Positions 13,290 through 64,000 are shown, numbered from the stretch's first letter. The stretch is 64,000 nt of DNA from Candidatus Omnitrophota bacterium (GCA_013203315.1 JABMQJ010000026.1:41006-105005), one strand, 5' to 3'. Notes: generated by a model from the sequence alone, not told the origin. Translations and numbers: made by a program.

Positions 13290-13291
13290 AT

Positions 13292-13364
13292 TAAGGGGCT
13301 CCTTCTTTACTAATAAACTAAGAGCTTGATGCTTACTTATTCAAATAGAAGGAGCCTCTTTTAT
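13292..13364. repeat. 13-bp inverted repeat hairpin (AGGGGCTCCTTCT / AGAAGGAGCCTCT)
   Basis: Read directly from the sequence. There is one G-U/mismatch, and the loop is AT-rich. Confidence 0.7.
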
Positions 13365-13566: not shown

Positions 13567-13629
13567 GTAAGGTTTGGGGAAAGCGAAAAAGGGGTTGAAT
13601 AATGCGGCTGGGTCATTATAATTGATAGT

Positions 13630-18741: not shown

Positions 18742-18971
18742 AAACAAGCTTAAACGTTGTTAGGTTATAAAAAAGCCACATTCTTACCCTTCTTTTTCCC
18801 CCCATTCTGTGCTATACTCTATGTAGAGTTAAATAAAGTGCTTGAATGAAGACAACGAGCAAAACGTAAGATTTTCGACAGGCATTTTTTTTGTCAACTA
18901 ACTAAAAGCTTTAAAAAAGTATTACCTATATGTATGATGCAAGTTTTACGCAAGTACTGGAGGAACCCAGA

Positions 18972-37700: not shown

Positions 37701-40700
37701 GGAAGGCGTATTCGATGTGAATGAATGGCTTGTAGGATCTGAGCTGGAAGAATGCATTACAATAGACGGGAAACCCGGCAAGCTTTTAGAGACATTAGAA
37801 GAGGCAGAGGTCATCGAAGAACTAGGAGAAGAGGGTGTGCCGGCGCTTCCCGCTCCAGAAGTTCCTGGACCCGCAGTCGGCGAACGCGGGCCAATAGGTG
37901 CCTTGGGCGCAACTAAACCGGCAGAAAAAGTATTGGCAACAACGCCGGATGGAACAAAAAAGTTCGTCCAGCGTCCGGATGGCAGTGTATGGCTAGTGGC
38001 GAAAGGAGACCCGAATCATCTTGAGATGTCTAGAGGAAAGACGCAAGCATGGGCGGACAGGAAAAATGCGCCACCCGAACCTCGCAGTGATATAAACCCG
38101 GAAACGATAAGCGAGGAAGTAAGCGGAAAAACGGAATCTATCGCTGCAACGCTTGAAAAATATTACCCGGAAGAAATGAAAGCGCTTTCCGAAGTTATTA
38201 CGCCGAAACAGTGGAACGAAATGTGGGCAGAAGTTTGCGAAGTTCATAGGCTAACCCCTAGAGGGGCCAAGGAGCATTTAGAGCGCGTAAATTATTGGTT
38301 GAATGAAATTCTTAAATGGGAAGAAAATAATGGTGTAAAAATTGACATTCCGGAGGATATGTACTCGCTTCTTTACGCCATTCGGCCGCTAAAAAATGAG
38401 GTATGGCCCATAGAGAAGGCGCTTCCCGGGTTACTGCGAAAATTGACCTATGTCGATTTTATGGCATCATTGGAAAAGCATAGGTTGTTATTTGATGCCC
38501 CGGTTCTGAAGCTAGCCGACGCAACAGTCAGGAAAGATCTTCGGGAGGTTTTCGTTCGTTTCTTCAAGATACTAAAGGACCATCAGAAAGGGAAGCATGA
38601 CAAGAGTGCCATTTTAAGATTTAGAAGGGAAATAGATGATAGAAACGCAGTGATTGTTGATCTCGCATTACGGCATAATACCGGGGAGCAGCTAACTGGT
38701 GAGACCGCTGCGCTTGAAAAAATCTCAAAACTTTTCCCGGAGTGGAAACTAAAGTATGGAGTGAGCCAGAAGGGTTTTCACGACTCTCATATATTGTTTT
38801 CATTTTACATGTTTATGGTAACCCAGGACCTTTCATCCGGTAAGATCGATGAGCTTATGCCTTTATTGCAGGCGCTGAAACCTTTTCTTAATGATTCCTT
38901 CGGCGAATACAAAGACATGGAATTAGGTAAGTTGCTAAAAACGCCGCGTGGCTTCGATCTTGACGGGGTTATACAAGTGTGGAAAACTCTGGGTGAGGAC
39001 TTAAAGAAGCTTTGGGGCGGCGAGGTGCATAAGCAAATGCTTAGAGGCCTTGAACTTGACCGTCTCTTTGAGGCAGCACGGCTAATAGTAGAATATCACA
39101 GCGGGGGAAAAAGGATAAAGGATTTATCAGGAAAAGAGATACAAGAGATTCTAAAACAGACGCTCGGGAAGAAAGGCTACACGGGATTTCTTGCCAGGGT
39201 AATTAATATTCAAAAGAAGAACGGCCTTACCCCGGACATGCATAAATCAATTGATTGCGCGAATACACGCAAGACACCGCCACAAGCCGAAACGGTGACA
39301 AGAAAAGACCTCCCCGGAAAACTACCGGGAGGAAAATATTACCTGAGCACGACCTACGAAAGCGGCTACAGGACCCCGGAGGAATATACCTTATATAAAG
39401 ATGCGGAAGGAGAGACAAAGATAATAACATTTTCTCTAAGAAAAGACGGAACTGTTAGGATAATATACGGCAATGATGAGGCGGCTTCGCAAGTTTGGAA
39501 GGGCAAATTTAATAAGAATGCGTGGTTACAAGGAAAGGCTTTAAAAGATTGCATTACAATAGACGGCGAAAAAGGCCAGCTTTTAGAGGAATTAGGTAAG
39601 CCAGAAGATGTGGAAAAAGGTATAAAACTAGAAGAGCCTGCGGTGCCCACGCCCACGCCTGCGCCCGGAATAAGTGAACAGGTACTTGGACGTGCAACTC
39701 AAGGCGCAAAGAGCGCAGTTGCAGGCACCGGTTCACCTTTGACGAATTTTGTGATGATCGTAGGTATGAGTGCGATAGGCGTTGTAACCGACTCTCAACA
39801 AGCACAAGAGCCCCCAGCGCAAGTGGCGCAAGTGGCACCGGCGAAGTCGGCGCAACCGGCGAAAAAGGCGGCGACGCCGCCGGCGCAAGCGAAAAAGCCG
39901 ACAACGCAGAAGGCACAAACACAACCCGCAGCGAAACTGAAACCTGCTGAAAAAGCTAATCTACTCATGAACTACAGTGGGCCAGATGGAAAAGATTCAT
40001 ACGGCCGTAATGCCGGAGAAAATTTCTGGGGACATGTTGGCATAAGCGATCCTATACAGGCAGAAAAAACAAGAAAAGCTTTTCGACACATGAAAAAGCT
40101 GGGCATCGACTCCGTGAGAATGGGATTAGTAGCCGATGGCCGCTCACTAATGGACGAAAATGGAAAGGTTGACCCCCAAAAACTTAATAAGTTCATGGAG
40201 GACGTAGAGGCTTTACTTAAAATTGCAGAGGAACAAGAAATCCAAATAGAAATAGAATTTTCCCTTATCGACCATCTTATAGCGTATAAGGGCAGAATAG
40301 ATAACGGCGTCCCAATTTTTGGTAGGGATGAAGTAATAAAAGACGCTGCAGGATTTGTTAAAGACTTCCTGACACCATTCCTTCAGAAATTCGGGAAACA
40401 TAAGGCGATAAAAGGAATCGACATTATAAACGAACCGGAATGGATCTGGATTAATACCCCCGTTACAAAGGACAAGGTAAAACAATTTATAAGAATATGT
40501 TCGAAAGCCATAAGGAAATGGGCTCCGGGTAAAACCATAACAGTCGGTGTTAATACCGAGTATACCGGAGAAATGGCCGCATTAGTTCGCGAAGGCGTGC
40601 TGGACTACGTAGCCATTCACCACTATGAGGATAGGTTCAGAAGGAAAAAAGCCGACGGCACATTCGAGAAAGATAATTTCGCGACATTAGAACGCTTCGT

Positions 40701-43700: not shown

Positions 43701-46700
43701 CCTTCTCACTTACAGGGTGTCCGCAAACGACGAGTTTTATCTCACGGTTCACTTAACAAGAAACCCTGAAACAGGAGAATATACGGTACGAAACGTATTT
43801 AAAGGTAAACCTGTTTCCGAATTCTACAGCGTTTATGGAAATAGAAGAATAAAGGAATATACAGAGCTTGACCGAAGGTGCGTAACTGTAAACTCCGAAA
43901 CAGGCAGATGCGAAGTGTCTGAAGAAACAGGCGTGGTAATTCTCACGAATCCGGAAACTGGTAAAGCACTGGATACCGAAAATCCGAAGGACATAAGATT
44001 GCTCGAAAAAAACATGTTCTTAAGCGATTCGGCAAATCCCGATTTCTCTTACACCATACCTTTAAAAGGCCCTGATTTCGAAAATGGATATTTCTACCTG
44101 AATAAGAAACTAAAAGGAAAAAGCATACCGCTTCTAAGATTAAGACTACGACGCGGCAAAACATTTGATGACTTACTTCGAAACGCACAGACCTCGGTCT
44201 CTGATAAAGCAGACGCCGAGTTGACTACAATAGATCCGAGAGATGCGGTGTTAGATGCCGTTTACGCTTCCTCTGAAGGCGTAACATATCGTGGTACAGG
44301 ACTTACTGTTGTATTTTCAATCATGAATATCGGAAAAGCCATCGGAGAAGGCCAGGAAATAAACATGGTTCCGATTCTGAACGAAAAAACAGGTGAAATC
44401 GATGAAGCGCGCGGCACGAGATTTGTCGTGAGGAAAGGCTCCGAAAAGATATTAGATCTGGATACTAATCTCGATAAAGTACCCCCTTCGATGCGTAAGA
44501 TTAAAACCATTGGCGGCACGCCTGCTTCGAAATTTACGGGTACTATTAAATGCCGGGTAGAGGAGCAGGTCCATTGGAAAAAAGTGTCGGTAACACCCGA
44601 GAACCGGGAATCTCTATCTGAAGAAATAGGAGAACCGGGTAAGTTAGGCCTACCAGGCGCAGAAGGGCCGATCGGTGCAAAAGAAATAACACCTCAGCCG
44701 GGAATGAAACTGACAGATAAAGATACAGATATCATCGTGAAAAAGTATTTTGATAAAGATGACAACTTCCTAAGGAATAAAACAGCTTTCGGAATAGGTA
44801 CAAACAAAGCAGCTAAGGATCTCGTTTTGGGAGCGCTCGGAAATTTAGAAAATTCCGACCCAGTATTTAATAAAAATGCAGGAAGCGATATATTAGATCT
44901 TCTTTACACAATCGCAAGGAAAAATAACTTAAATCAAGAAGAGTTACGACGTCTCATCGATGAGAAACTGATACCTTTAACCGATCTCGCCGTAACAGGA
45001 TTTAAGAATTTAGATATTCAAAGCATCGAAGGACTAACAAAGGATGATTACATAAACTTGAGTACTAACGAGAACGCAATGGCCCTCGGTGTACTTATTT
45101 ATTGGGCAAGCAATCGCGATGAGAAGTTTAATTTTGACGAATTCTACGATGCATTTAATGAACTGTGCACATATCCAGAAGGGGACAAAGACAAGCAGGG
45201 CTTGAAAGACGCGCTACTATCATATTTCGATACAAGACTTAACTTGGCAGCAGCGGAGAACAAGGTCAAAGTCGACGAATTGTCAGAGGCTAAAAGATTT
45301 GGCATCTTCGTGGATGTCATGTCATCTTTTGCTAATCAAAAGGTTGCATTAGAAGAAGGACGTTTGTCTGGGGAAAGGTTTATAGAAGGGTTGGGTTTAG
45401 ACGAACTTGGACTGGAACCGGGAGAAACACTTCCGCCGCGCATTATGAAATTATTCATTGAAGCAGAAGAAAAAAGGCTTCAAGGCGTACCCTATGCTGA
45501 GGTGCAGGAGGAATTAGAAGAAAAGCTAAGCCCGGGTATCGGGACTCCGCTATTAGACGGTTTAAAGACAATTTGGAGCTTTGTTCCATATGTAATGGGT
45601 CTTATGAGTGCTTTAATAGCAGCATTAATTGCAATTATTATTAGGAGACGTCTCCCACCGAGATTTAGGCCGGGTTCGTTAATGTCGCAGCTTAGGCCGC
45701 GCGCGTTACTGAGTCTAGGACGCTCGTTACTAAGTCTATCATTCAGGGGACTACGTCGTGCCGGTAAATGGATAGGGCTTCCCTTGGTTCTGGTACTCTT
45801 AGTAGCAGGCGAATCATTCGGCGCCCCCGTTGGTGCGGATCAAGTTTTAACTCTTGTCGATGGCGGTCCAAGTTTTTTTTCAAGCCTTTGGGCCGCTGTT
45901 CCAAGTCTAATCTCATGGTGGGGTGTTTTTTATGCCTATTGCGCATTTACTATAGGTAGAGGGTTATATAGGGCTATTATTTCAGATAGAAGTTATGTAG
46001 ATCGAGGCACTCGCCACTTTGTAAGGCCTGCGACAGCTAGCAGAGAGTCTCTAACACTAGGTTCTCTTCACCAGTCGATTTCTGACATTGACGCAACGGG
46101 TATGACAAAAGTAGAATTCCTGGCAGCAATAGAAGATGCCATGAGTGATCAAGACTTTAATGATGAATTCAACCGTATTTTTGATAGAGAAACCGCAGAT
46201 ATATTGCAAGGTGAAGGTATTCTTGAAAATATAAATAACAATGATGGCGTGGGAGCGAAACAAACCTTGCTTAATGAAGTCATGTGGAGAGAGGTAGGGA
46301 CTTCTATAAGCCACATGCAAGGAGCTATGTGGGATATACACAGAACCCTCGAGCCTTCTAGAACCGGGACTACTGGCAAGAATAGGTATGTTCCTGTATA
46401 TAGATTTTCAATCTCTACGTTTTTAGCATTTCTTGCAGGCAGCGGTCTTTTGCTTGCGAATTTTTTGAAAGCAGGCGCCACAGGTTGGTCCATGGGTTAC
46501 GGCCCGGGCATGTGGATAGCAGGAGGTCTCCTACTTCTTGTTGCCGCTATAAACGGATATAGGTTCATATGGGATGTAGTCATGCGCATACTTGACGGGA
46601 TTCCTCGTATTGGTGCTTTCGCAAGGCGCCGTCGGTTAGCGCTTGAAGTAATGGAGAATGAGTTAAGCGCTTTGAGGGAGTACTACAACCAGCTCAGTAC

Positions 46701-49700
46701 ACAAGGTGGTTACGGTTTTAGCGCGGCCCAGTGGCAAGAAATTCTGAAATTCCCTGTCCATGTTCCGTTTGGCGGTGTCGATGAAGCCATTGAAACCTAT
46801 GAAGAAACTATTTCATTTATGGAATACATTGAATATTGCCGGGCCTGGGTAGATTTTTTAAAGAAAAATAAAAATTACAGAATATTTGCCAGACTAGCAT
46901 ATCCACCGGACCAGCAGAGGCGTGACGTAATGCCGAGGTTTTATACGCAAGGCCCCGAGTACTATATGGCGCATACTCCCGGTACTAACTCTATTACAAC
47001 TCTTATGCCTGGTAATGAAAACGATAGTCCCGAATATGACATAATAGGCCAAGACCAGCCTCGTAACGGCCATCGGAGATATACAAATACTACAGGTATT
47101 CCGTTTACGAGACGAGTTCCGGGTGTTGGGCGTATAAGAAATCCTTACGCGGATCCAATACACCCCTTTGTGCCATTTGATAACATGTATAAATATTTGT
47201 CGCATATCAGAAATAGGGCGCGCGAAGTGCGGAATGCAGGAGGTAATCTTGCGCTTGTTACAGAGCGGGAAGAGGTTGTAGCGCATAATACGGTAGGAAC
47301 AATTGCGGGAAGGTTTGGTCCGGGGTCGGAGCACACCAGCTATCCGGGTGTTTTATGGGACAGGCACCTCTGGCACACTATTCTATTCGCAGGCATGGTA
47401 GTTCCGTTAGTGATGCTAGCCTTTCAGTTCAGGCTTGATCTCGTTGCCATGGGAATCGCTGAAGATTTGCAAACCATGTCTATGGGCTCATTTAGTGTTG
47501 CTGCGATTATTGCGGGTATCATAGGATTCCTTACAGTAGTCGGTTTACTTAAAACTCATCTTTTTGGATCGGGATATACCCAAAGAACGCGGCGCATATT
47601 AGGTGTTTCTGTGGTTGCAGGACTTGGTGGCGTTATTTATGCATTTGGCCGGGACGGACTGGCAAAAATTGCGGAATTTTGGGCTCCATACATACCGGAC
47701 TTTCTCTCCACTTTATTTACACAGGACAGCGTTATAGTAAAAGGCATAATGGCTTTAGGTAGCATATTGAGTCCGAACGTGCTCTTTTGGGGGCTTTGTG
47801 TTACTTTGGTTATTTTGGGTGTAGTCGCGCTTGTCTTCATATTCCGTTATTTCTCTTCAGCCTTTCGCTCGCACGCCAATGAGATACAGGATGAGGATAT
47901 TTCAGATTATGTTCCGGATCGCATCTTAAGAGAAGCGCTGAATAGGGCAATAGAGGATGTGATTACCGAAAACAAGCAAGCTAACTTACCCGAAGTGATA
48001 AGAGACCTAAGAAGAGGCAGGCCGGCCGGGACCCCGCTGATTCTGGAAACTGACAACGTGCAGGATATTTACAACCAGGTTTGCGCGTCATATAGAGGAT
48101 TAAGAAAGGCCGCAAGGCTTCGGGCGAACGAAGCTCTATCAGATTGGCTTATTTACCGTATGAGAATACCGCATGAAGTTTCGTCTGCCGGAAGGAGTAC
48201 TGTTAGCGTTGTTGATATAGGAACTGTCGTAAATGATGTTCGTAGAAGGCAGCATATTATCGATACCTTAAGAGCAAACGGTTATGCAGCGCAAATGGCC
48301 GATTTACCCGCCGCAGCACCTGTAGGCGATGATGGCCGCACGACTAACAGGGACATAATCGAACGATTATCGTACGACGAGATAGAACATATTTTCAACA
48401 CGCCTGCTATAGCGGAGGAGATATTCGAGCCTGTTGTTCTTGCGGATACTGTTTTTGGTGATGACATAGATGGCGTCCGCCAAACGTTGGAAAGCGCCAG
48501 GAAAAGTTATAGAGGCCGCGTATACATTGCTCTCGCCATGGATGACGACGACCCAATGGGCGGCCCCGCAGCTATTAGCGCAGCTATGGAACCGGGAGGG
48601 GCCCTGGCACAATATGCCGATAACATAATAATTTACACAGGTTCAAACTGGGGAGACAATTTAAGGAGATCCCAGGGCAAGATTCGCATGAAACCCGCTC
48701 TTGATGTCGAAACAATCCAATATCTTAAGAAGGTTTTTGGCGAACGGGGAGTAGCGCTACCCGCTTTTGTAGAGTTAGTTGACCAGGAAGATAAGCTAGG
48801 AGCACTTCTTCTAAATTCCAAAGCATTTTTGAGAAAAATGTATGACAGAACAATAGACGATGAAATAGCCGGAAGAAGAAATAGAAGAGACTATGACAGG
48901 TGGGGAATAGGGTACGCCGGCTTGTTTGGCCAAAGGACCAAGTTTTTCATTACATATTATTGGACGCTTCTCAACTTAACAGTGAGATCCTTAGGCGCAA
49001 CGCCTAACGAAGACGGCAGCGCTAGACACAGGATAGCATTTATGCTTGAGAAGTTCAAGGAAGTGTATGGCAACTGGCATGAATTTGCAGAGTCTGAATT
49101 TCAGGCAAGAAGTCATCCCTACATTATTCAGTCCGAACTTCGCCTTGTTCCTAATAAAGACCAGACACATGACTATCTGTCCCATTCCGATTATCTCATG
49201 TGGCATACGCAGATTCAGGTTGGTCAGACTGTCAATAAATTTCTATTCTTAGGCGGAACAGGAAATAATTTCCGATGGGATATGCTTGCCGGCGAATCGT
49301 TTAATCCTGATGGAACGCATTGCGAGTATTTAAATCATAGAGCCGAACTTCAAGACCTTTTAATGCCTTTAAGAAGAAGCATTGAAAGAGATGAGTCGAG
49401 GGTCGCGGAATCTTACGCGAGATTCCCGCTTCCTTTAAGGATTATAATCCATTTAGTCATACATCCTTTACGCGCGCTTTTTGATCCGAGTGTAAGATCA
49501 ACACGCATTTCTTCAGGACTTCTAAAAAGGAATCTTAATACCTATTCTATCGGCGGAACGTGGGATTCTTATAACATAATCGAAGACTCAGAGTTAGGTC
49601 GACGCCTCGCCCTCTATGGACTCGGCGCAACGAGGCTCACAGGTCCCTTTACCAAGGTTCTCGAAGATTTATTGCCGGTTATGGGAAAGCCGTGGTGGCA

Positions 49701-52700
49701 ACAGAGGGCACGCTGGATTATAATGCAGACATTTGCCGTTGTTCTGTCACACCCTGCCGCATTCTTTATGTTTTTCGGCCAGTATGTAAGTATGGGACTT
49801 GGGTGGATGTTACTCGGAAGCGCAGGGGCAATACTGCCCGGGCTGGCAGGAGCTGCTATAGGGTTTCTTGTCGGGGGATTTGTATTTTATTACTTAGGGC
49901 ACCTTGTTAATAACATTCTTATATGGACAGGCTACAAGAGGAACGCCCAGTGGCAAGTAGACCCCGTTAAGGCATTAGGATACTGGAGATTTCAGCATAT
50001 TTCGCATTTGGCCGCAGCGGCCCCCGCTGCCATCGCAACCGCTATAGCGCTTAGCATATCACTTCTTTACGGAATAGCCTTAGTAAATGTTCCCGGATTA
50101 GAGCTGTCAGGTTCGGGGGTAGGAGCATTTCTTGTTGAAGCCATAAGGTTCTTAGGGGTTTACATTCCTTTTATAAACGGATGGTTACCTTTTTGGTGGG
50201 TCGGCGCGATCGTATTTCTCACTCCTCAAGTTATACAGGTATTTATGGGCTGGATAGCAACCGCTCAGCATGGCGTGCAGGATGAAGAATCTACCACTGC
50301 AGCGGCGCGTATTTTTCTAACAGAACGCAACTATACTGGAAACAGTCCTAACCCGCTTATTGGAATACCAAGTTTGGATTTTGCTAACGTTGCCCCTGCA
50401 AGTGTGATTGGCACCAACCGCACGATAGCAGAACATTATAGTCGCTTTTCGGATGATGAATTTGTTCTGAATTGCTTGGAAATGTATATAGCAAATGCCG
50501 GAGACGCACTTCGGGTTGCAACGCCAGGTAATGTTAATCCTGATTCTTTTGGCTGGGTCGATCTTGATGCTAACTGGACTGAAAGGGGGAGGCATCTGTT
50601 AAACCTAGCAAATGCAGACGATATAGAAACTTACAGAAGGGCCCTAAGAGGGGCCATAAGCCACGCTAGGGGGCTCCAGGCAAAAGTAAGGGGAGACATA
50701 AGATTTTCATGGGGGGTCGGTATTTTTGGCGGTGCCTTAGCCTTATGTAGCGCCTTCTTGGTGAGTACAGGATTCTTTTATCCATTTTTTGGTGCTATAT
50801 CTATAACAGTCGGCTTGCTTTTAGTGCTTGGTACCGTTGCAACGCAGGTTCTAAGCTCGAGGCCCAGCAGAGGGCGCAGTTCCCCCGATGCCCCGCTCGG
50901 CACTAGGCCACGTCTGTCCTCAATAGGAAGACGCCCCTACCAGGGCTATCACTATTTTATAAGGCAGCCTCTTATGCTGGTCTATTTCATGAATCTTCTT
51001 CCTGCAATGGCCATAGGCCTTTTCATGTCAGGTTTTACGGGTGATAGATACCAAAATCAGTCTTTCTGGCCGAGAGGAAGGCAGGGGCTTGCTCCGCCTA
51101 GACTTGGTGAAAGAAGGACTTTTACAGGTTTTCGTAGGAGAGTACTCGATGTTATAAGAACATTTTTCCTTTCAGTTACATTGATAGTCGGTCCGATATT
51201 GATCATTATACAAAACCCTGCTGAGAAAATGCACCTGGATCCAATAGTGCTCACACAGTCCATTGTTATGGGTCTTGAAGCGGAATACCAGAGGCATATA
51301 CGCCGTGTGGGGCGGGCCCCATCTCCAAAAGAAATATACGAAATTCTTAACAGCGATAAATATAAGCATCTTCAGTACGGATGGATTCTCGGAAAAATTA
51401 CTGAGCTGGAAAAATATATTGCAGCAGGCGAAAAAGAACGCGCCGAGATATGCCTTATGTGGGTAATAGAAGGCATGAGAGTGCAGAATGACTCTATGAC
51501 TAAAGCAGACGAAACAATAGATTTGGGGGCAAAAGAAAATTTTGAGAAGCTTTCCCAGTGGTTCTTTGAATTTTGTTATCGCAACAATTGCATGGAACTT
51601 TATTACAAGGTATTGCCTATGACTCATAGGGCGCTACCCAACACAGATTGGAAGGTAGATGATTCAAATAAAGCAAAGGCAAAAGTGATTAACGACAAAA
51701 ACGGAGAAGCGCTTAAATTAAAATGTGAAATCGAGGGAAATAGAGGCGCCGGTGCAGGTTCAATTACTGTAAGAACAGAGCTACCGCAGGCCGTCGATAT
51801 GAGCGATCTGGAATATGTACTGAGCTATGGCGTAGAGACCGATGACGGCTCAAAGTGGACCCGAAACATTACGGTCAAACTTATCGATGGAAATGGTAAC
51901 GAATATTCCAATCCTCTTATTCGTGATCTTTACGCAAACAGCGCAAGTGTGAGGATAGCTCCGTTACTAAAAATGCAACGAGAACAGGCAAAGAATACCG
52001 GGACTGAAGGGCAGTTTTTTGATCCGACAAATGTCACAGGTATTGTGATTGAAATAGGCGGGAACCTCGCGAGAGATTTTTCAGGAACAATAGAATTGAA
52101 ACACTCAAGAATCCAGACAACCCCTTCGGCAGCTACTGTAAAGGATGCCAAGGATATAGATGTAAGGTTATTAATAGACATGATGATGAAAAACGCTTTA
52201 CCGCAAAGAGAACAGGTTATTCGCGCAGTAGATAGGCATGTTGCGGAGATGATGAGGAAAATTCTGATGCTTGAGCCATTTATTCCAACCGCAGTAGTGC
52301 AGCGACCTGTAGATGAGGCCGTGACGGCTACGCAACCACGAGTAGCCCCGGAGGTATTAAGCCCGAGAGCGAAAAAAGCGGCAGAGCGAAAAATAGCAAA
52401 AGGACAGGACATCGCAGCAGCAAGAAAAGCAAGAGCTTATAGCGCAAGAGCTAGAGCAAGAAGAAGGGGTATCGCCCTCACATTGATGATACCTATAATA
52501 GCTTTCGCAGGGGCACTTTTCTCATCAGCTCCTTATATTATGGAAATAACCGGCGTAGGTAGCATACCTCTAGCTATGCTTATCGGGCTAGGCTCTATGC
52601 TCGCTTTTGCTTCAATAGCTGCTGTAATTAGTGTATTATTTGTAGTAGCCGTTCTCACATATATGCATTTACTCCTATACAAGACCCTGTCGAAGGTTGA

Positions 52701-55700
52701 ACTGGCGGAAGAAACAGATCCTGCACTTTTGGCGCATATGAGTACAGTTATGGAGAAGGCTAAGCAGAACGCGGAAGAAGATGCAGCTCTTGTTGGTGTG
52801 GCTGCGATGATTGTTGATGCAGACGGGAACGAAGTAGTTATAGGGGCCCAGTCAGAGTCAGCACTTCCCTCAAAACGATTTGATCATGCTGAAATCAATA
52901 CACTTATCGCAAGCCGTAACGCCGGCACAGATTTATCCGATTGCACCTTACTTGTTTCCCTTGAACCATGCGACGGGTGCGCAAAGGCAATAATTAATAG
53001 CGGTATCAAAAAAGTAGTAATAGCGACATTGGAGCCGAGCCAATGGATATTAGGAGAGGGCGCTCGCGCACTATTATTGGCAGGCATAGAAGTAGTTATC
53101 GCATCTAAACCGGTTCAAAGAGACGCTTTGGAACATTTTACTGAAAGAATGCATGTATTAGGAAGAGAAGGAGAACTTGCTATTTCAGTTGAAGAAGCTA
53201 TGCAAGTTAATGATCAACCGATTTCACTATGGAAATCAACAGGTGTGGAAGACTTAAAAGCATTGGCGAGGCAGTCACTCGATAATCAGACAGTTGATAC
53301 CCACAACGATAGACATGATATATATGAGTTCGATAGACTAGTAGCGCACATTTTAAGAGACAGTTTGCAGCTTGATAGAGATAGATTACCGCAAATAGTT
53401 ACGATTAACGCAAATTCCTTTGATAACTCTCTGGGATTAGAAGAAGTTTACGCAGAAAGAAATGTAAAAAATCAAATACTATGGACAGAACAAACTTATG
53501 ACCCATCAAGGCCACATTCTATTATACTTGCCGGAACAGATGAAAATTGTCTTAATATCTTATCCCAAATCGAACGCCAAAATCTAGCACCCCTTGGGCA
53601 TGTATTTATCATGAGAGGTTTCAAACCCGGCCAGCCGGTTACGCTTACAAGCGCTGCCGACTTCAAAGCGCGACAACTTGCAGAGCAACCACCGCTTCGC
53701 GCACCGCCGCTACCGGCAATACCACACGTGCTGCTCGAGGCCCACCGTGGGCTGATAGAAGGCACGAGCGCCGAGGAAAATACGGCTCTTGCACTACAAC
53801 AAGCTGCAAACGACCCAAGAACAAATGCGATAGAGTTCGATGTGCAGCGCTCAAGAACCGGAGAACTCGTGATTGCTCACAGAGGCGGCGCTATCCAAGA
53901 TGCTGATGGCAACACCAGAAATATTGCTGATCTCTCGCCAGAAGAAATCCACGCTATTGACCCAAGCATTCCGATACTTAGAGACGCACTCGATACTATC
54001 CTGATTCCATCCGGAAAAATTTTATTTATAGACATGAAGGATTTCAACTTGGAAGGCGACCAAATAAACGATTTCGTGAACCAAGTAGTGGAATTAATTC
54101 GAGATCGTCAAATCACTAACCATGTAAATATAGGTTCCTTCAATATAGATATTTTACGAAGAATACGGGCAAGGCTCCCTGCGGTTAGAATAAATTACTT
54201 CGGTGATAGTGAAAGAGAGCACCCTACGCCGACTCCAAGCACAATGGATCAAGATATCCAAAACGCCCGCGAACTTGGCGCAGTATATTTTTCAATAGCA
54301 ACCGATGATTTTACAGGTGAAGGTGAGCTTGATGAAGCTATCGACAAGGTGCACGCAAGCGGCCTTTCCTCTGATCTGTATTTTAGAGAAGGGGTCCCTG
54401 CCGGGTTCGAGAACGAAATAGCCACTTTACAAGAAAGAGGGCTCGGTATTGTCAGCACAACTGATAGCGGTACCCTCGCAGAATTTACGCAGCCCACACT
54501 CCAAACAGAAGGAAATGTATTGAGTATACATCCTGATGCAATCCTTGGCATGTATCGTGGATTCTTCATAGGCCATGTCAGGAGATTTACAGGTATTGCC
54601 GGTATATTAGGCCGGGAGCTTAATCTTACTGAGGCACAACAGGCGCTGTTGGAGCAGGCCTCACGGCTTCATAATCTTGGTGAAGATGTAAGGGGCGCGT
54701 ACGAAGCAGAATTTTTTGATTTGTCCAGTCAAGTGCGTAACGAGTTTAAAGAAGATGGAAAGCCGGGAGTTTCCATAAGGAGGGCAGTCGATCTTCTTAT
54801 TTCGCGTGAGATGTCCCAGGATCCTGAAACTCAAGATCAGGAACTTGTATCGCTAGACGCAGATACCAGATATCGATTATTCAGAGCAGGCTTATTAAAG
54901 ATTTTGAATAAAGAAGAGTTAACCAATGTAGAAACGGAACTATCGCATTCATTGTGCAATGCCGCGGAGAATAGACTCAGAATGTTCGGTGAAAGGGGCA
55001 TAGATCTATCTCAGGAATCCCGGGATCTAGAAATTTTGCTAAGATACAACGACGACTACATAGGATTTGAAAGAGACCTACCGCAGTTTGAAAATGAGCT
55101 TACCATGCCGGTTGAAGACATGAGGCTTCTCATAGCCATAATGTTCCTTGCTGATGTCCTGGAGATGGGAAATAATCGGTATGTGCAGCGCGAACAAAGA
55201 GGCAGAGACATTGAAAGCTTGCCGGCAACAATTGATTTTATAGAGACACGTTTAATCGCTGACGAGCGCATACAGGAAAGCGCCCCTCTGGAGAGAGCAC
55301 TGGTTCGTTTAAGAGCGCTTATAGCAAGAGAACATCCGGGCTTGGTTAGATTGCTGCTTCAGGCAAGGGGGACTACCGAGCTCATGCCGGAAGACCGCCA
55401 ATACATACAGACACTACGCCAGGAAGCGCCGAAAAAATCTATTCTCGAAGTTTCCTCCGGCGAAATACTAAATCACTCACGTGGTTATATAAGGGATCAT
55501 GTAGGAAGGGTAGCCCGAATGGTGCTCCGCGTCGGACAGGCCATGAACTTGAGCGACCAGGAAATAAATATTTTAAGGTGTGCGGTGTATGGCCACGACG
55601 TAGGTATTTACACGGTACCGGAAGTCGATAAAAGTTTACGCGAGATGGGAGTAGATTTTGCAAGAGCTAAAACGATGGAGTATGAAGCCTTTATGCAGTA

Positions 55701-58700
55701 CGCGGCTGGTATAAAGAGCGCTACCGAAGAAGGCGCTGAATTAACAGAAGAGGAAAGAATCGTTCTCGATGACGTATGCAGGCACGGCGCAAACTTTGCT
55801 GACTTCCTGAACGAAAGGTATCAGTTACCAGCAGAAGTTGAAATATTAGTTAGGGGTCATTTTAATCATCAAACATTCTTGTCAGATATAGCAACGAGGC
55901 GCAATGAAATATCTATTCCGCTGGCCAGATTAGAACTTCTGTTATCGATAATTGTTACGGTGGATTCATTTGAAAGCGGAAATAATAAATTTAAACAAGC
56001 ACAATATAGAGGAAGCGAGCCCGAGTCATTTACCGATTCACTGGGAACTGTTGAGGTGCATGGCAAAGATGGGTTCGTAGTCAGAATGTGTAGGGATTGG
56101 GGCATAAAAGATACAAGGCCGCAAGATGTGCTAAGAAAATTAATAGTTAATAGGGACCCCGAAATACTAGGAGTCGTAAGAGAAGCGCGGGAAGCGGCGT
56201 CAATCGACGAAGCCCTTACGCCCGCTGATTCGGAATTTATCACAGCCAGCCGCCGAATTATGCCTCGTCTGCGCAGGGTAATTAGAGCAATAGTAGATTC
56301 TGTCCGTGACATATTTGAACGACTAAGAATAGAAATAGTCATGCGCCGGATCGATCGAATGATAGTAGACATAATTGCCAAAGGCGAGTTACCGGTAATA
56401 GTAGCAGACATTGATGGCACGATAACAGAATCAAACATGCCGGTTTCCGATGAAAGCTTAGACGTGATTATTGAACAGGCGCGACTTGGCGTGCCGTTTA
56501 TGATGTTAACCGGTATCAGCGCTGCAACTGCCCGCAAACAATTATTTGACCCACTCATAGGACGCCTTAATGAACGGATAGATGTCGATAAAAGCGTTTT
56601 GATGAATTGTATTTTTGCAAGCGACAACGGTACACAGATCTACATATATGATGAAGAACTGAATAATATAAGGTGTGTATTTAATATTAATATGAGGAAG
56701 TATTTACCAACCGGAAAATACAACCAAATCTTTAAAATTGTCAATTCATGTATTCGCCTGTTTGACATGCGTACGATGCTGCAGGAGAAAATGGGCTGGC
56801 AATTTAACGATGAGGAATGGGAGAAATTCAGAGCAACTTGTACTGTAAGGAGAAAGATAGAGGGGGGTGTCAGTCAAATAACATTGATGGTGCTAAGCAG
56901 GAATGCTACCCATGAACAAAAAGAAGAATTCCAAGCAAAAGGCGGCGAAGTGCTACGAAACGCATACGCAGATTATATAAATAGTGAATTTGAAAGACTT
57001 GGTATAGATGTTAGAGCAAAGGTTTCGGGGTTAAGCTCAATAGACATAAACCCTGCAGGAATAGATAAAGGCTGGGCCATAGAAACTATCTCAAAGCTCT
57101 GTAATTTAACCCTCGATAGCATAATATTTATAGGTGATGCATTTGGTCTAAGAGACAATGATACCCCTGCGCTTAGATTTGCCGAAAAGGGCATCAATGT
57201 CGGCGCGCGTGTTGCAAAATCAACACATAAAGGAAAAGAATTTCTGCAGCTACGGGGTACCGGGCCCAGAGGATTTAACAATGTAATAAGAAGCGTCATC
57301 GAATACGTTACAAGATTCCAAAGGACGTCAACTAGGCTACCCATTGCTTCAGCATTGATGGCAAGATTAGAAGCAGGACCTATCCAGATACAGGATGCAG
57401 GAGCAGTGATAGCGGATGGAGATCTAAGAGATATGCAGCATTTACTGGATACACATCTCCAGATCAGTTTTGGAGGGGCGATTGAAAATTACGAGCTTTT
57501 CACTCAATCTTTCCTGAATCAATGCGTAGCCGTTGGCCTAGCGGTTAATGATAAAGAGTATATGAAATACCTGGCAAACATTACTTACGATGCTGTAGGA
57601 AACACATCGGAAGGCCGTGACGAGGCGCATCTTCCCGTTGTTCCTGTGCATTTATCAGCAGGAATGGGGCAACTCGAGTTTTTGATTGCCTGTGAAAAAA
57701 GACCCGACCTGGATAGCTTTATAGTAACAACCATGGATAACAGTAACATGCCTATTGAAGGCCTGCTGACGCTCGAATTCAAAGTCGCAAATCAGGATAC
57801 GCCTATAAATGTTTTTGTTTCGCGTATTGATCCACATGCTAGGCGTCTGTCCGGCGAAAGGGATCCCCAGTTACTTGCTGCCTTGGAAGAATTAAAAGAA
57901 TTAGTAAGCGATAGAGTAGTGGACACAACTCCTGGCGTACAGGCCACGGGTAGGGTGTTAACGAACAAGTTGGCCAGGCTATTTGATAGCATATTAAGGT
58001 CCAGTTTCAAAACCGGAAGGGCTACTGAGATTCCGGTGGACGAAGGTCGTGGAATTAACTGGAGCGAGATAAGAGAAGGGTTCCAGTTTGTGACACACGA
58101 CGAACTTATGGAAAGCCTGGATGTCCGTGGCTTACCTGTTAATATACATCCGGGTCGTGGAGGGGAAACACTGGGCCATGGCGGCCTCCAGGCTCACATA
58201 GATAGCTATATATATGAGAATTTATCAGATGAAGAGCTTAAAACTCTAGCAAGACACGAATTAGCCCACCTTGACATTTTCAATGTAGAACGTATGTCCG
58301 AACAGGAAAGACAAGCGATTGAAGGCACAGATGCCTATAAAACTTGGGAAGCATGGGTCGAAGCAGGAAAGCGTGAAGGTCGAGCGCAAGAGACATTTGT
58401 TAATAACCTCCCGGGGTGCAATGCAGTAGCGGTAAGCAGAAAAATAGAGCAGCTAGCGCGCAAAAAGAGACGCCAAAACCAAAGAGTAGCAAGCCAAGTG
58501 CTGGTCGCAACACCCGAAACAGTCGAACCCGCAGTCGCAATGCCTCTGACACCGAGCGAATATGCACGCGTATGGTCTCCGGATATAGCCACACACGATG
58601 AGATAGTCGCAGCAATTAACCCAACTCTTGAGACAGCCATTACGGCATTAAGCGGTAATGATCTTGATCCAATAACAGAAGTATTAAGGAATATCGCTGC

Positions 58701-61700
58701 TACAACAAACCCGGATGAAATAAGCGCATTAGAAGAAGCAATAAGGCAATTATCACGAAGGTATTCAATTTGGTCAGCCTATCTCGGCCAAAGAATTGAC
58801 GAAGCAAGAGATAGCCTTTCCGGGAGCGAAAGAAACCGCGTTGACGCACTATTTACAAGAGCAAGAGAAAGCGTAAGAGCTGCTCAGAACGAACAGTGGG
58901 CAGTTATAAACGCCGGCGGCGTAGGAAGCCGATTCTGGCCTGTTGGATATGAGAAAAAACCCAAACAGCTTTTGTCGTTTGAACCGGGCGAACCTTCACT
59001 TCTTCAATCAGCAGTACTGCGTCAGGTGAATCCCGATAACCCCAACTGTATAAGTCCGGATCATGTCGTGATTGTTACAAATGCTAATATCGTAGACGAG
59101 GTTTGGGAGCAGGTAAAGGACATAAAAGTAAATGGTGTAGGAATTCCAAGGGAAAATATTCTAGGTGAACCTAAGGGGTTGAATACGGGGCCTGCACTAA
59201 GGCTAGGCGCGTTATTTATTGAACAAAAAACCGAGGGTGGACCCGATGCTATTATACGAGCCCTGTATGCTGACGCTGTTATTCCTGATCATGTATCTTT
59301 CAACAAGGTACTAGCCAATTCCGCTGATGTTGCAAAGTTTACTAATGTTTATGTTGAAGTAGGTGTAACGCCCGGAAGAGAACTAGATGGAAGTCTTGTA
59401 GTGAATCCAAAATTAGGACATCAGCAACTAGGAAAAGACATAGGCGGAGACGCTAATTATCTTCTTAAGAGAGTTGAGAAAGAGGTAAAGGAAACCCCCC
59501 AGGCAACGCATGATTATTACAAGGGTTTAGTTGAGAGTGGTGCTACATGGAATAGCGGTTGCGTAGTAGTCAGAGCAGGTGTTCTGACAGACATGATACA
59601 GACAATGCACCCCGAGGTAGAAGAGGTATTTCAGAAATACAAGGATCGATTAGGGGAACCAAGCGCCCTTGAAGAATTATATGATGAACTTGAAGAAAAG
59701 GGTGCAAAGTTGCCGTACGACACTTTCTTTTCAAAAGATGCCGTTGAAGGGGAATACCTAAGATTTGGTGTCGTAGTAACAACGGGCCTTGAGAAGGACA
59801 ACTGGGATGACGTAGGTAATCTCGCAGAATCTCGCAGAATGGCCAAAATTCCGTCGGAAGACAATTTCATTGCGCAAGGTAATGAAGAAAACATAACATT
59901 TGAAGAAGACACTGAAGGCAATACTGTTTATGCAACAGATGACGGAACAAAAGTCGTTTTACATAGCGGAGTAAAAGATTTAATAGTTGCTTACGAGAGA
60001 GGATGTAATTCACTACTTGTATTGCCAAGAGATGATTCTGCAAGAGCAGGCGAAGTCGTAAAAGAAATAACTAAGCAAAGTTCACACTATCACAGGTTGC
60101 TTCCCTATGCAACGGGCGAAAATCCGCCCGCGACCTGCGGTGAAGCCCACGAACAAGATGAACACGAAAATACTAAAACCGGCGATGCAATTTTTGTAAG
60201 CGATGACACCCATAATTGCCGTCTTACCACAAGCAAAGGACTTATCGCTGCGATTAATCTAACCGGATATCACATCGAATGGGATGCGGGGAAAAACGAA
60301 ATACATGTTTCTCTTGAGAAACCAGCCGAACCCGCAGTCGCCATGCCTCCGACACCGGGCGTATATGCAGTGTCTCCCGAAAGAGCAGAAATAAAGACAA
60401 CGTCTGTTACGGCTAAGCACGATGGTATTTTACCATGGCTGGAAGAGGGGATAGCAAGCGGAGCAATAGGTGAAAACAGAGACCTTATCGTTTTTGATTC
60501 TCACTTGGATGTTTTTGCCTTCTCATCGGGAAATGACGGCTGGATAGCTACTATCAGGAATACAAATATGAAAGTCGGAAAAATATATGCTGTTGTGCCT
60601 ACAATGTGGGGCACTGTTCATTCGCTTAACGCAACAGCTATGAATTTGGCAAAAAGCCTGAATGTGGAAATTGTATTTGGCCTCGAGCAATTACCACAAT
60701 TTGATGAACCGGTTACAGTTTCATTCGAAAACGACTTTGTAGACATAAATCTAATTCATGCAACTAAAAATGAAGTAGCCGGAAGACAACGTGAAGTTGC
60801 TCGCGCACTTTCCGGAAGAAATATTCAGATAGAAGGTTTCCATATATCAAATGAAACAGAGCCGGAATACGCAGACGGTGAAGATAAAGGCTTTATAGTG
60901 CGCAATATGTGGGCTACGCTTGCTGAGGAAGGTTATGACTTAGAGAAGAAGGACACATTCACAAGATTACGCGCCCGAAACCCGGCCAAAAGAAAACAAG
61001 CTGTAGCTGATTTAAAAGAAGACCACCCGCTTCTTACAGAAGAAATAGATGCGCACCTTGGAGCACTTCCTATATCGGGTAAGACAATATTAGACAGAGC
61101 AAAAGAAACAGGTAGGCCTGTCCTTGCATGTAACATTGATAACGGCGAACTATCATCGCTTCAGATACGTTCAATGATGCAGGCAGCGCTCGACATGAAC
61201 GCATTCATCATGTTTGAAGTAGGACCTGCTGCGCTACTCACTTATGCTGATGGCAAACCCCAGCTTCCTGAATACTGCGCGCGCGAGGCATACAAATTAT
61301 ACAAAGAAACAGGAAAATCCGTTACATACGCTGTTCACCTTGACCACAACCAGATAAACAGAAAGAAATATAATACAAGAGGCGAAAGAAGAAAAGCTGT
61401 CCGGGAAGCCGTTGACCGCGCAAAGAGTGCCCTTGCCGTAGGATTTACATCTTTTGCGACTGATACATCTACATTAACCGACATCGACAAAGACACGGTT
61501 AAAGATCAGTTGCTCCCTGTAGTTAATACGGCCACAAGGATTCTTTCAGCTATATATGATGAAGCAAAGGCTCTTGGAGTAGAAGTAGGTAACGAAGGTG
61601 AGGTCGGCGACATAGGCACTTCAATAAGCACAGTTGAAGACGCCGTGCATTATTATCAGGAACTTGTTAAGAAGTTAGGCGCTCTCTCAAAGAGAATGGG

Positions 61701-64000: not shown

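Follow-up and report, generated by a model that had tools for sequence, protein, structure and literature searches.

A string of fused enzyme modules within a 16,609-residue protein predicted in an uncultured Omnitrophota bacterium

The window, by which we mean the whole stretch of 64,000 nucleotides analysed, is occupied from nt 19777 to 63999 by a single open reading frame (ORF) which lies on the plus strand, like all features described below, contains no in-frame stop and is still open at the 3' end of the window. The stop-free frame extends over nt 19750-63999, or 14,750 codons. The probable start is the ATG at 19777, with GGAG just before it, which is also the start of a gene called on JGI contigs and coding for a product of 16,609 aa, of which the window covers residues 1-14,741. 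Scanning GTDB genomes and JGI metagenomes with the protein of nt 60802-63999 gave no match, and no exact copy of a 60-mer from the window end occurs in the metagenome collection. Neither Rfam nor tRNA scanning gave any match at threshold in the window. Neighbouring proteins are exact matches to NCBI entries in the series NQU95881-NQU95895, annotated as 'Candidatus Omnitrophica/Omnitrophota bacterium'; the four matched proteins are NQU95881, 95884, 95892 and 95895, the last via the same 90% cluster.

An ORF of this kind could be an artefact, with separate genes fused by assembly or sequencing errors. Such a view finds some support in relatives where the same modules are split over consecutive ORFs of 930, 2,750, 6,241 and 11,770 aa, and in frameshifts inside domains on low-coverage contigs. 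Sequencing and assembly errors break ORFs rather than fuse them, and the 14,750 stop-free codons carry a coding signature that is uniform along the whole length (GC1>GC3>GC2), and the first codon position is a purine in 63-70% of cases in the ORF frame vs 44-58% in the +1 frame. Also against an artefact, the identical 16,609-aa call was made twice, on two JGI contigs from different samples, and wherever the JGI and Logan assemblies, which are independent, overlap, the sequence is identical, the Logan match lying at the 5' end. We consider the artefact hardly credible, and the ORF very probably encodes, in an uncultured Omnitrophota bacterium, a true membrane protein of 16,609 residues that belongs to a described class of giant multi-enzyme proteins.

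The protein opens with a family-defining N-terminal region, hereafter the head (nt 19897-21669), for which 24 homologues with 24-58% identity were found and whose HMM matches residues 50-640 of the giant-ORF frame. It includes a signal- or anchor-like segment recognized by its hydrophobicity (nt 19942-19998), after which a conserved YDITWAQGG is found (nt 19990-20016). The head also exists as stand-alone genes of 930-1,021 aa and opens another ORF of at least 8,022 aa. Thirteen of the 24 homologues are named by source, 12 of them as Omnitrophota/Omnitrophica. Pfam gave no match on the window copy. The pattern QDxH...EGxxG...GGxH presumably resembles a Tiki/TraB/ChaN-type domain; this assignment was considered and set aside, as the PDB profile search of the head returned nothing and the ChaN/Tiki matches of the family in Pfam (Cofac_haem_bdg) were weak and confined to 4 of 15 members, with E values of at least 0.064.

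Downstream of the head, the N-terminal third carries an HD phosphohydrolase domain (nt 22573-23031; Pfam HD 30.9 bits, gathering threshold (GA) 22), and a GH5 (cellulase-family) TIM barrel is located at nt 40066-40581 (Pfam Cellulase 25.4 bits, GA 23.5), where a DUF4434 match below GA was also obtained. According to hydropathy scans, a cluster of about 17 hydrophobic helices (nt 45586-51210) surrounds a GT2 synthase-like module at nt 49555-49887. The Glyco_trans_2_3 match to this module spans only the C-terminal half of the profile and scores 21.6 bits, below the GA of 27. The module contains an ED at 49576 and, at 49702-49716, a QRARW that is the sole QxxRW of the protein and is followed by hydrophobic helices; DxD was not identified. 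The sequence-only reading had proposed a GT2 synthase-like membrane module and a GH-like barrel upstream of the enzyme string: the latter holds as a GH5 above GA, while the former stays below threshold, yet with QRARW and ED preceding the helices. Hydropathy further revealed two or three helices directly upstream of the enzyme string (nt 52468-52656), themselves preceded by a very basic stretch with 8 K/R in 15 residues, and two or three others (nt 62650-62877) closing an enzyme loop of ~3,300 residues. In all, about 22 hydrophobic segments were counted in the window part of the protein by a Kyte-Doolittle scan, a crude method. A weak HEAT match lies near the window end.

A Pfam search of nt 52171-63999 detected five enzyme domains in one frame between nt 52741 and 62001, all above GA and in the order initially proposed: a deaminase, a GDPD phosphodiesterase, a HAD-IIB phosphatase, a ManC-like nucleotidyltransferase and a class II aldolase. 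The original list, of five or six enzymes, also contained an HD domain, which scores under threshold (HD_5 17.3 bits, GA 27.2). Over the window part of the protein, HD, Cellulase, dCMP_cyt_deam_1, GDPD, Hydrolase_3, NTP_transferase and F_bP_aldolase are each found once above GA, none being dominant by copy number. The spacers between the enzymes, previously described as unassigned, turned out to consist for the most part of conserved modules (the region following the deaminase, another HD-like copy and a HExxH domain). Nine conserved modules stand nearly back to back: the deaminase, its companion region, the GDPD, two HD-like modules, the HAD-IIB, the HExxH, the ManC-like and the aldolase modules. 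Nor is the string C-terminal as had been claimed, since it sits at ~66-85% of the 16,609-aa length, and 1,868 residues of the protein fall past the window end.

The string begins with a CDA-fold zinc deaminase (nt 52741-53040) matching Pfam dCMP_cyt_deam_1 at 62.0 bits (GA 25) and MafB19-deam at 54.4 bits (GA 27). The HAE and PCDGC motifs quoted from the sequence were located at 52885 and 52966-52980; HAE and PCxxC are matched in alignments to T4 dCMP deaminase and RibD (structures 1VQ2 and 2HXV), and are invariant in relatives P0013 and P0038. The best NCBIfam and PDB matches are of the dCMP-deaminase and RibD type, with a faint match to anti-phage dCTP deaminase, and NCBIfam scores stay well under the cut-offs (TadA 24.5 bits vs 150; RibD 46.7 vs 156). 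The deaminase travels with the post-deaminase region (nt 53041-53664), a conserved stretch of ~200 aa that follows it in three homologues; together they share 50% identity with P0013 and 39% with P0038. This companion region has no PDB sequence match, and its AF2 model is poor (pLDDT 55.8), with RibD/RibG as top Foldseek hits at a TM of only 0.24. This low-confidence model hints at a two-domain fold in which a RibD-like deaminase would be followed by a reductase.

The GDPD phosphodiesterase (nt 53743-54366; Pfam 34.4 bits, GA 23.6) contains HRG within AHRG (53737-53751), ExD within IEFDVQ (53830), a second His within VIAH (53866) and FIDMK (54025), in which E is replaced by D; it was aligned to 2O55 and 2PZ0. 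No GDPD is present at the equivalent position of P0013/L005, the closest relative of the segment, and none was detected in P0038. The HD domain that had been flagged corresponds to a first HD-like module (nt 54418-55419) whose sub-threshold HD_5 match lies at nt ~54541-54681 and whose dyad reads HN, the Asp being lost (RLHNLG, 54664-54681). The homologous HD modules of P0013, P0038 and P0054 retain HD, as does a second, tandem copy (nt 55447-56268; YGHDVG, 55588-55605) situated in formerly unassigned sequence. This internal repeat, between frame residues 11735-11895 and 12009-12173 (E=1e-12), surfaced by chunked BLAST, self-BLAST of the whole protein having given the self-match only.

Next comes a HAD-IIB (Cof/PMM-like) phosphatase at nt 56398-57204 (Hydrolase_3 42.6 bits, GA 20.9). 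Its motifs I-IV are intact according to PDB alignments, namely DIDGT at 56407, the T of LTG, the K of DKG at 57058-57075 and GD..ND at 57133-57162, and most of 20 relatives, themselves parts of long proteins, conserve them; the cut-off of the subfamily model TIGR00099 (44.9 vs 137) is not reached. It is followed by a domain that the sequence-only reading had missed, hereafter the X domain (nt 57889-58542), a putative metallopeptidase of the zincin/gluzincin type containing HPGRGG (58147), HELAH (58255-58269) and AQE (58384). Across the family, E138 and H141 of the HExxH are invariant and H137 nearly so. The predicted structure (pLDDT 81) has its best, albeit weak, fold matches among M48/M56/minigluzincin peptidases. 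As in minigluzincins and M48/M56 enzymes (selecase, proabylysin, projannalysin, Ste24, BlaR1, HtpX), the HExxH lies on a helix and then comes a conserved Glu (AQE). The X domain is nominated as a candidate processing protease.

The ManC-like sugar-1-phosphate nucleotidyltransferase with its beta-helix tail (nt 58900-60066; NTP_transferase 38.6 bits, GA 21.2) aligns over its full length with 2X5S and 2CU2, enzymes of ~336 aa, and weakly matches the ManC beta-helix profile; the PMI cupin domain was not detected in this module. It keeps GGxGxRxWP, PKQ, EPxxxNTxPA and WNSG, while ADH reads ADA (His to Ala), and it scores 90 bits with TIGR01479 against a cut-off of 373. The class II ketose-bisphosphate aldolase-like domain (nt 61078-62001; F_bP_aldolase 85.5 bits, GA 25.5) exhibits HLDH (61333), GTAHG (61747), LHGFSG (61882) and NINTD (61948). 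In alignments to KbaY and FBA structures of the PDB, these motifs supply the three His that bind Zn, the catalytic Asp (in HLDH) and the phosphate site (NxD). The domain shares 66% identity with a partial protein of an Omnitrophota MAG, and wherever a homologue extends over the motifs they are conserved; three of the five named matches of this query belong to Omnitrophota MAGs. It reaches no equivalog cut-off, neither that of FBA nor that of tagatose-BP aldolase.

Profile matches and motifs show the enzyme domains to be genuine and, HD copy 1 excepted, catalytically intact in sequence. The profile searches first suggested as a check yielded significant matches for the deaminase, GDPD, HAD-IIB, nucleotidyltransferase and aldolase, and inspection of the catalytic residues showed them to be retained and conserved in relatives, save for the HN of the flagged HD copy. 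The proposal that one polypeptide unites homologues of enzymes that usually stand alone (those of sugar phosphates, nucleotide sugars and phosphodiesters, and a deaminase) is thereby upheld. The modules are nonetheless distant from free-standing enzymes, with which they share only 25-36% identity and relative to which they contain insertions (e.g., 308 aldolase residues aligned over 242 profile positions). None of them reaches an NCBIfam equivalog cut-off, scores being far below, and their closest relatives are other embedded copies rather than free-standing enzymes.

These modules reappear, shuffled, in proteins of 1.6-6.4 kaa that share the head of the giant gene, the head being carried by 24 of 40 long representatives. 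P0038 (6,241 aa) associates the head with HAD, deaminase, ManC and HD modules, plus PIG-L and FBPase; P0049 (3,024 aa) reads head-FBA-X-PGM/PMM and P0079 head-X-ManC, while P0051, P0054 and P0102 combine the head with HAD. L004 is arranged as AlaDh-hexokinase-FBA. A crude hydropathy scan found a signal-peptide-like N-terminus in 22 of the 24 head-first relatives, some representatives being possibly truncated, and 22 of the 24, including carriers of FBA, ManC and HAD, are devoid of any further strong hydrophobic segment. This comparison shows that one head marks a family of modules, that relatives shuffle these modules and that most have a signal-peptide-like start. Because order and composition vary between relatives, the modules are unlikely to form an ordered assembly line.

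The signal-peptide-like starts of most relatives, together with the lack of further strong hydrophobic segments, suggest a location outside the cytoplasm. In the giant protein itself, the string is flanked by K/R-poor sequence, the basic stretch lying on the far side of the two or three preceding helices, whose ambiguous number decides on which side of the membrane the string would lie. Within the transmembrane cluster, the hydropathy scan and the positive-inside counts disagree, and helix counting combined with the positive-inside rule was not retained for a firm assignment. Were the GT2-like domain cytoplasmic and all 12 helices called downstream of it genuine, the string would lie in the cytoplasm. 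Some relatives carry hexokinase, an observation that runs against export; ManC and hexokinase substrates are not expected outside a cell, and ManC chemistry needs NTP, or PPi in reverse. Taken together, an array of independent enzymes that is exported or membrane-anchored appears to us the best reading of the string, and a somewhat probable one; its extracytoplasmic location and a scavenging role are more tentative, at a little under an even chance. The modules would act as independent enzymes held together. A Sec-type N-terminus would direct the array out of the cytoplasm, and the hydrophobic clusters would anchor it in the envelope. Its substrates, encountered at the surface of the cell or where it contacts a host, may be nucleotides, glycerophosphodiesters and both phosphorylated and nucleotide sugars. 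The zincin-like domain may either process the polyprotein into fragments or target foreign proteins.

A rival that takes up the main idea of the sequence-only reading is a cytoplasmic, membrane-tethered metabolon feeding the adjacent GT2 synthase-like module, in which activated sugars would be made or remodelled, the aldolase, the HAD/PMM-like and the ManC-like enzymes successively leading to an NDP-sugar, the GT2 would polymerise and export the glycan and the GH5 would trim it outside. All these enzyme families are normally cytoplasmic and the NTP requirement of ManC is established biochemistry; moreover, the catalytic motifs are preserved, the same polypeptide contains, ~1,000 residues before the string, a GT2-like module endowed with ED and QxxRW, and the even number of helix calls from there to the string would place both on one side. 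Nielsen & Lui class 46% of long Omnitrophota proteins as 'TM-only' and read them as membrane-anchored cytoplasmic domains (10.64898/2026.06.07.730766). The glycan-assembly idea is right in that fused sugar and phosphodiester enzymes are real and retain their residues; it fares less well on module order and composition, which are not conserved, and on the GDPD, which is absent from the closest relative. The GDPD, deaminase and HD are moreover hard to fit into an NDP-sugar line, and no PMI, PMM or kinase step that would complete the pathway was detected in the window. Among the relatives, those carrying FBA, ManC or HAD display a signal-peptide-like start instead of a detected GT2 module or strong transmembrane helix, and the GT2 Pfam score of the giant protein is under threshold. 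We regard the metabolon as the less likely reading, though still a serious contender. That the folds have decayed and are reused as non-catalytic structural or binding scaffolds (e.g., for adhesion) in a giant coat protein is improbable. The strong divergence of all domains and the equivalog cut-offs they miss, the large insertions in several of them, the missing Asp of HD copy 1, the His to Ala change of the ManC ADH and the adhesion roles proposed for giant ORFs by Seymour et al. (PMC10066038) are all compatible with such scaffolds. They fit poorly with metal-binding and nucleophile residues that are kept in the deaminase, GDPD, HAD, ManC, aldolase, HD copy 2 and X domain and stay conserved across relatives at 25-66% overall identity, which is the pattern that selection for catalysis would be expected to leave.

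Two further readings deserve mention. The deaminase had been likened to polymorphic toxin cargo, which would make the giant protein a vehicle for a nucleic-acid-editing toxin, and both the MafB19-deam score and the faint anti-phage dCTP deaminase match, in a huge and probably exported protein, could be seen in this light. The likeness finds no support: the deaminase is internal, at residue ~11,000 of 16,609 with >5,500 residues still to follow, dCMP_cyt_deam_1 outscores MafB19-deam, dCMP/RibD-type models score best, and the domain is always accompanied by its conserved neighbour region as well as by HD and HAD modules. As the ORF continues, no immunity-like small gene can follow the deaminase. 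We deem a toxin very improbable. According to the other reading, which strikes us as quite unlikely albeit less so than the scaffold, the polyprotein would be exported by its signal-like N-terminus and cut by the HExxH domain (or by a Tiki/ChaN-like head), releasing a set of sugar-phosphate, nucleotide and phosphodiester enzymes at or inside a host cell. If true, host phosphorylated metabolites would be converted to forms that an ultra-small Omnitrophota parasite could import.

Giant proteins are common in Omnitrophota and constitute an acknowledged blind spot; one of them is more abundant in cells of V. archaeovorus attached to larger cells. The present example is useful in that its enzyme modules are unusually legible and their catalytic motifs intact, and it sharpens the question of whether textbook cytoplasmic enzymes such as class II aldolase, ManC and HAD phosphatases work outside the cell. 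The sequence-only reading had not placed the locus in the context of giant Omnitrophota multi-enzyme proteins.

The protein is a well-preserved example of this published class and not a new kind of system: the genome is that of an Omnitrophota, the product falls in the range of at least 10,000 aa and many domain families are present. Nielsen & Lui 2026 describe a 'multi-enzyme metabolic cluster' class (10.64898/2026.06.07.730766), their class 1, which the protein resembles in its Omnitrophota host, its length above 10 kaa, its many Pfam families with none dominant, its sugar-metabolism/HAD/HD content, its multiple transmembrane helices and its signal-like N-terminus; PF01116, PF00483, PF03009, PF00383 and PF08282 go unmentioned in the main text of that paper. 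Giant Omnitrophota proteins with GT, GH, FBA, PGM/PMM, FBPase, TPI and GPI domains and many transmembrane helices were predicted to be extracellular by West-Roberts et al., who doubt their own predictions (10.1101/2023.11.21.568195). Their archaeovorins, typified by the 39,678-aa protein of Velamenicoccus archaeovorus LiM, are likewise giant Omnitrophota membrane proteins with GH/GT content, and their 'less common' domains include PGM/PMM and fructose-bisphosphate aldolase, the latter being present here (10.1101/2023.11.21.568195). That study analysed genes >90 kb, and the protein described here is smaller, at 16,609 aa. Unlike in archaeovorins, no methyltransferase, NUDIX, SecA_DEAD, C39 or S8 domain was detected within residues 1-14,741 (at E<=0.01 for methyltransferase and NUDIX). 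The weak HEAT match at the window end is a feature in common with archaeovorins. From their consistent domain set (glycosyl transferases, glycosyl hydrolases, methyltransferases/SAM methylases, peptidases and NUDIX), GH5 is present, GT2 lies below GA and a peptidase is represented only by the putative X domain, while the numerous transmembrane helices have their counterpart in the ~22 hydrophobic segments of our crude scan. Most archaeovorins contain a divergent SecA_DEAD domain and have PilZ genes downstream (10.1101/2023.11.21.568195); the related locus L007 likewise has a SecA-domain ORF and then PilZ genes, neither of which lies within the window. With viral and other self-processing polyproteins, the giant protein would share many enzymes in one ORF and an embedded protease-like domain, an analogy of mechanism and not homology. 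Its modules have the same folds and catalytic motifs as free-standing ManC/GMP (Thermotoga maritima 2X5S), FBA/KbaY, Cof-type HAD-IIB, GDPD (2PZ0) and dCMP/RibD deaminases.

On the forward strand, 14,750 consecutive codons without a stop extend from nt 19750 as far as the window's final complete codon; the likely start is ATG 19777, preceded by a GGAG sequence. Residues of the frame are numbered from nt 19750, and subtracting 9 gives the numbering from the ATG. Composition by codon position (GC1>GC3>GC2) is uniform along this frame and the same as in the upstream genes, as is the purine content at codon position 1, which amounts to 63-70% versus 44-58% in the +1 frame. This uniform codon signature implies that the spacers between enzyme domains are coding as well. 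On two JGI metagenome contigs the gene is called from the same start and its product measures 16,609 aa; one of these contigs is identical to the window over 21.7 kb, and two Logan assemblies are identical to the window across the 5' end of the giant gene. The contig is carried by samples SRR28106059, SRR28106079, JGI 3300032731 and JGI 3300032737. With assemblies this concordant, it is barely conceivable that the giant ORF is an assembly artefact. An ECF-type sigma factor gene (18930-19562) ends 214 nt upstream of the giant ORF start, and the JGI and Logan contigs that match the window show the two together as well. At the related loci L006, L007 and L010 this pairing with the N-terminal region of the protein, hereafter the head, is absent, and the head is preceded by different genes.

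Further upstream, a lipid A and LPS-core cluster (126-13095) encodes WaaA, a CBS protein, a CitMHS transporter, LpxK, an LpxL-ELM1 fusion, a GT4-GT9 fusion, a GT4, a polysaccharide deacetylase and three GT9 heptosyltransferase-like proteins; the organism is therefore a diderm whose core oligosaccharide is elaborate. The 534 nt that separate PolX from the last heptosyltransferase gene (13096-13629) are full of nested long inverted repeats, one with 36-nt arms (13146-13181/13257-13292), one with 31-nt arms (13365-13395/13537-13567) and three more pairs; an Rfam search of this gap returned nothing but sub-threshold generic-hairpin matches. From nt 13178 rightwards, the window agrees base for base with JGI contig Ga0335114_10155015; to the left the contig is unrelated, and genes from FtsK through ketoacyl synthase stand in place of the LPS genes. 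This puts the breakpoint within the first hairpin, and its cause could be a rearrangement between strains, a mobile element of palindromic structure or a chimeric assembly.

The sequence-only reading had described five or six normally free-standing enzymes fused in frame within the giant ORF. Pfam searches of nt 52171-63999 confirmed this string and recovered the families in the claimed order, all on the forward strand: dCMP_cyt_deam_1 (nt 52741-53040; 62.0 bits, GA 25), GDPD (nt 53743-54366; 34.4 bits, GA 23.6), a sub-threshold HD_5 (nt ~54541-54681; 17.3 bits, GA 27.2), Hydrolase_3 (nt 56398-57204; 42.6 bits, GA 20.9), NTP_transferase with a faint ManC beta-helix (nt 58900-60066; 38.6 bits, GA 21.2) and F_bP_aldolase (nt 61078-62001; 85.5 bits, GA 25.5). 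NCBIfam families were concordant (GMP_PMI, ketose-bisphosphate aldolase, RibD deaminase domain, Cof-type HAD-IIB), and none of the string domains reached the NCBIfam curated cut-offs. They are divergent family members whose substrates are not readable from sequence. Another HD domain upstream in the giant ORF scored 30.9 bits. The GH-like TIM barrel proposed upstream was recovered as a GH5 domain (25.4 bits, GA 23.5). The proposed GT2-like membrane module holds the sole QxxRW of the protein, an ED motif and hydrophobic helices just after, but its 21.6 bits fall below the GA of 27.

Alignment to solved enzymes shows that the catalytic motifs are largely intact. The deaminase keeps HAE and PCDGC; the GDPD keeps HRG, ExD and the second His, the third acidic metal ligand being an Asp substitution; the HAD domain keeps DIDGT, T, K and GD..ND; and the aldolase keeps HLDH, GTAHG, LHGFSG and NINTD. 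The ManC-like domain, which reads GGVGSRFWP, KPKQ, EPKGLNTGPA, WNSG and WDDVG, aligns end to end with a 336-aa Thermotoga enzyme. Exceptions are confined to the HD copy singled out by the sequence-only reading, which reads HN rather than HD, and to the ADH motif of ManC, whose His is replaced by Ala. Because the catalytic positions are conserved in relatives of just 25-66% overall identity, we consider it improbable that the string consists of fossil domains.

The stretches separating these enzymes, previously taken as unassigned, proved to be mostly conserved, coding modules. The ~200 residues following the deaminase share 50% identity with the relative protein P0013 and 39% with another, P0038, and are always preceded by the deaminase. 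Residues 11735-11895 match residues 12009-12173 (chunked self-BLAST, E=1e-12), revealing a tandem duplication whose second unit is a further HD-like module with the HD dyad kept. Between the HAD and ManC domains lies the X domain (~220 residues; nt 57889-58542, forward strand), the best-conserved piece of the stretch, with 40-58% identity to copies in ~26 long proteins. Its HELAH (nt 58255-58269) is the sole HExxH among the 14,750 residues. In a 14-sequence alignment, E138, H141 and H101, P102, R104 and G105 of HPGRGG are invariant, and H137 and Q181 and E182 of AQE nearly so; an AlphaFold2 model built from this alignment reached a pLDDT of 81.2. Pfam gave no match to the window copy, some family members yielding weak PhageMetallopep, M78 or SprT matches. 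We class the X domain as a putative gluzincin-type metallopeptidase: its HExxH motif is clear, whereas the fold is no more than suggested. In the N-terminal half, which is dark to Pfam, chunked self-BLAST also detected several internal repeats at frame residues ~2796-6600 (window ~28100-39600), for example pairing residues 2796-2925 with 4879-5002 (43% identity), 5722-6000 with 6352-6599 (31%) and 5040-5087 with 5101-5148 (65%).

Four proteins encoded beside the giant ORF in the window exactly match proteins from an NCBI MAG annotated as Candidatus Omnitrophica/Omnitrophota, where they lie on a contig of 120,510 nt. The head (N-terminal ~600 residues, window 19897-21669) has 24 homologues, 13 of them named, and all but one of these 13 come from Omnitrophota/Omnitrophica MAGs. 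It comprises a long basic N-tail, a hydrophobic segment, a conserved YDITWAQGG and a domain lacking a Pfam match. Set behind a hydrophobic segment and a ~55-residue basic extension, YDITWAQGG looks like a signal-peptidase site. The invariant pattern QDxH...AQ...EGxxG...R...TGGxH presumably resembles the Tiki/TraB/ChaN superfamily; Pfam Cofac_haem_bdg (ChaN) matches 4 of 15 head-family members (best E 0.064), and a profile search of the PDB gave no match to the head. Heads occur as stand-alone genes of 930-1,021 aa, and in GCA_049642705.1 a head opens an ORF that is at least 8,022 aa long; an adjacent 5,111+-aa ORF there has SecA domains at its end, with two PilZ genes behind it. A phmmer search with residues 12200-13399 against 1.84 billion representatives (full pass) gave 4,049 matches; among the best 150, 40 are at least 1,200 aa long and 24 of these start with a head. 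The complete P0038 (6,241 aa) carries a head, HAD, deaminase with its companion region, ManC and HD, plus PIG-L and FBPase; its neighbours are an 11,770-aa ORF and a 3,966+-aa ORF starting with another head and carrying PGM/PMM and transaldolase. P0049 (3,024 aa) reads head-FBA-X-PGM/PMM, P0079 reads head-X-ManC, and ~20 other relatives have a head followed by X. A 3,194-aa AlaDh/PNT-hexokinase-aldolase protein from a GTDB Omnitrophota MAG contains a further member of the aldolase subfamily. P0013 (locus L005) lacks a GDPD at the equivalent position: the deaminase region leads directly into the HD module, the ORF stops and the next ORF begins with a head. The module set hence travels with the head, while the modules vary in order, in number and in how they are divided among ORFs.

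In the related loci L007, L008 and L010 (ENA ERZ24794666 NODE_1313), large head-bearing genes lie in tandem arrays (11,770, 6,241 and 3,966+ aa), PilZ genes follow stand-alone head genes, and further enzymes embedded in these loci include FBPase, PIG-L, PGM/PMM and transaldolase/FSA. Low-coverage relative contigs contain frameshifts within the aldolase and deaminase domains (L002 9457-11068; L005 ~318). Gene callers thus split probably longer ORFs, and database proteins of the head family are often fragments.

The string forms a single loop of ~3,300 residues, bounded by one hydrophobic cluster at residues 10907-10969 and another at 14301-14376. A very basic stretch (8 K/R in 15 residues) precedes the first cluster and the string-facing flanks are K/R-poor, which favours an outside location if this cluster forms three helices; two helices would place the string inside, and within the larger TM cluster the counts are contradictory. 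By crude prediction, 22 of the 24 head-first relatives have a signal-peptide-like N-terminus and 22 of 24 have no further strong hydrophobic segment, and those combining both features include carriers of FBA, ManC and HAD. Standard rules predict, crudely, that such relatives are exported.

We lean slightly towards independent enzymes held on one exported, membrane-held polypeptide. At the envelope or host interface, the substrates of these modules would be phosphorylated sugars, nucleotide sugars, nucleotides and glycerophosphodiesters, and the HExxH domain is a candidate cutter of the polyprotein or of foreign proteins. The extracytoplasmic location and role of the array are proposed more tentatively, falling somewhat short of probable. 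The main objection is that ManC, like the hexokinase of relatives, needs nucleotides, which leaves two options: a mistaken localisation, or enzymes operating where they have access to host cytoplasm. The main rival, put forward in the sequence-only reading, is a cytoplasmic metabolon feeding the GT2-like module. We regard such a metabolon as rather unlikely: module order is not conserved among relatives, PMI, PMM and kinase steps that would complete a pathway are missing from the detected domains, and no GT2 was detected in those relatives that start with a signal-like segment and lack a strong TM helix. That the deaminase is polymorphic-toxin cargo, as also suggested, is very improbable, as it is internal and is always accompanied by the same modules.

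Giant ORFs across Omnitrophota were reported by Seymour et al. 2023 (PMC10066038) and by Kizina et al. 2022, as cited by Seymour et al. and by West-Roberts et al. 2023 (10.1101/2023.11.21.568195). The latter defined Archaeovorins, predicted with doubts to be extracellular, whose less common content includes fructose-bisphosphate aldolase, PGM/PMM, FBPase, TPI and GPI. The Archaeovorin domain set fits the 16,609-aa protein partly: residues 1-14,741 (counted from the ATG) contain no methyltransferase, NUDIX or SecA, and the protein is much shorter than the genes analysed by West-Roberts et al. Comparison with relatives adds a head-defined family, a conserved HExxH domain and, in many relatives, a signal-like start followed by cytoplasmic-type enzymes; for these three details we claim no novelty. 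Nielsen & Lui 2026 (10.64898/2026.06.07.730766) catalogued 916 long proteins and named a "multi-enzyme metabolic cluster" class, and the 16,609-aa protein shows every feature of this class that was tested. Giant Omnitrophota proteins with multi-enzyme content are already published, and the present protein is a further example.
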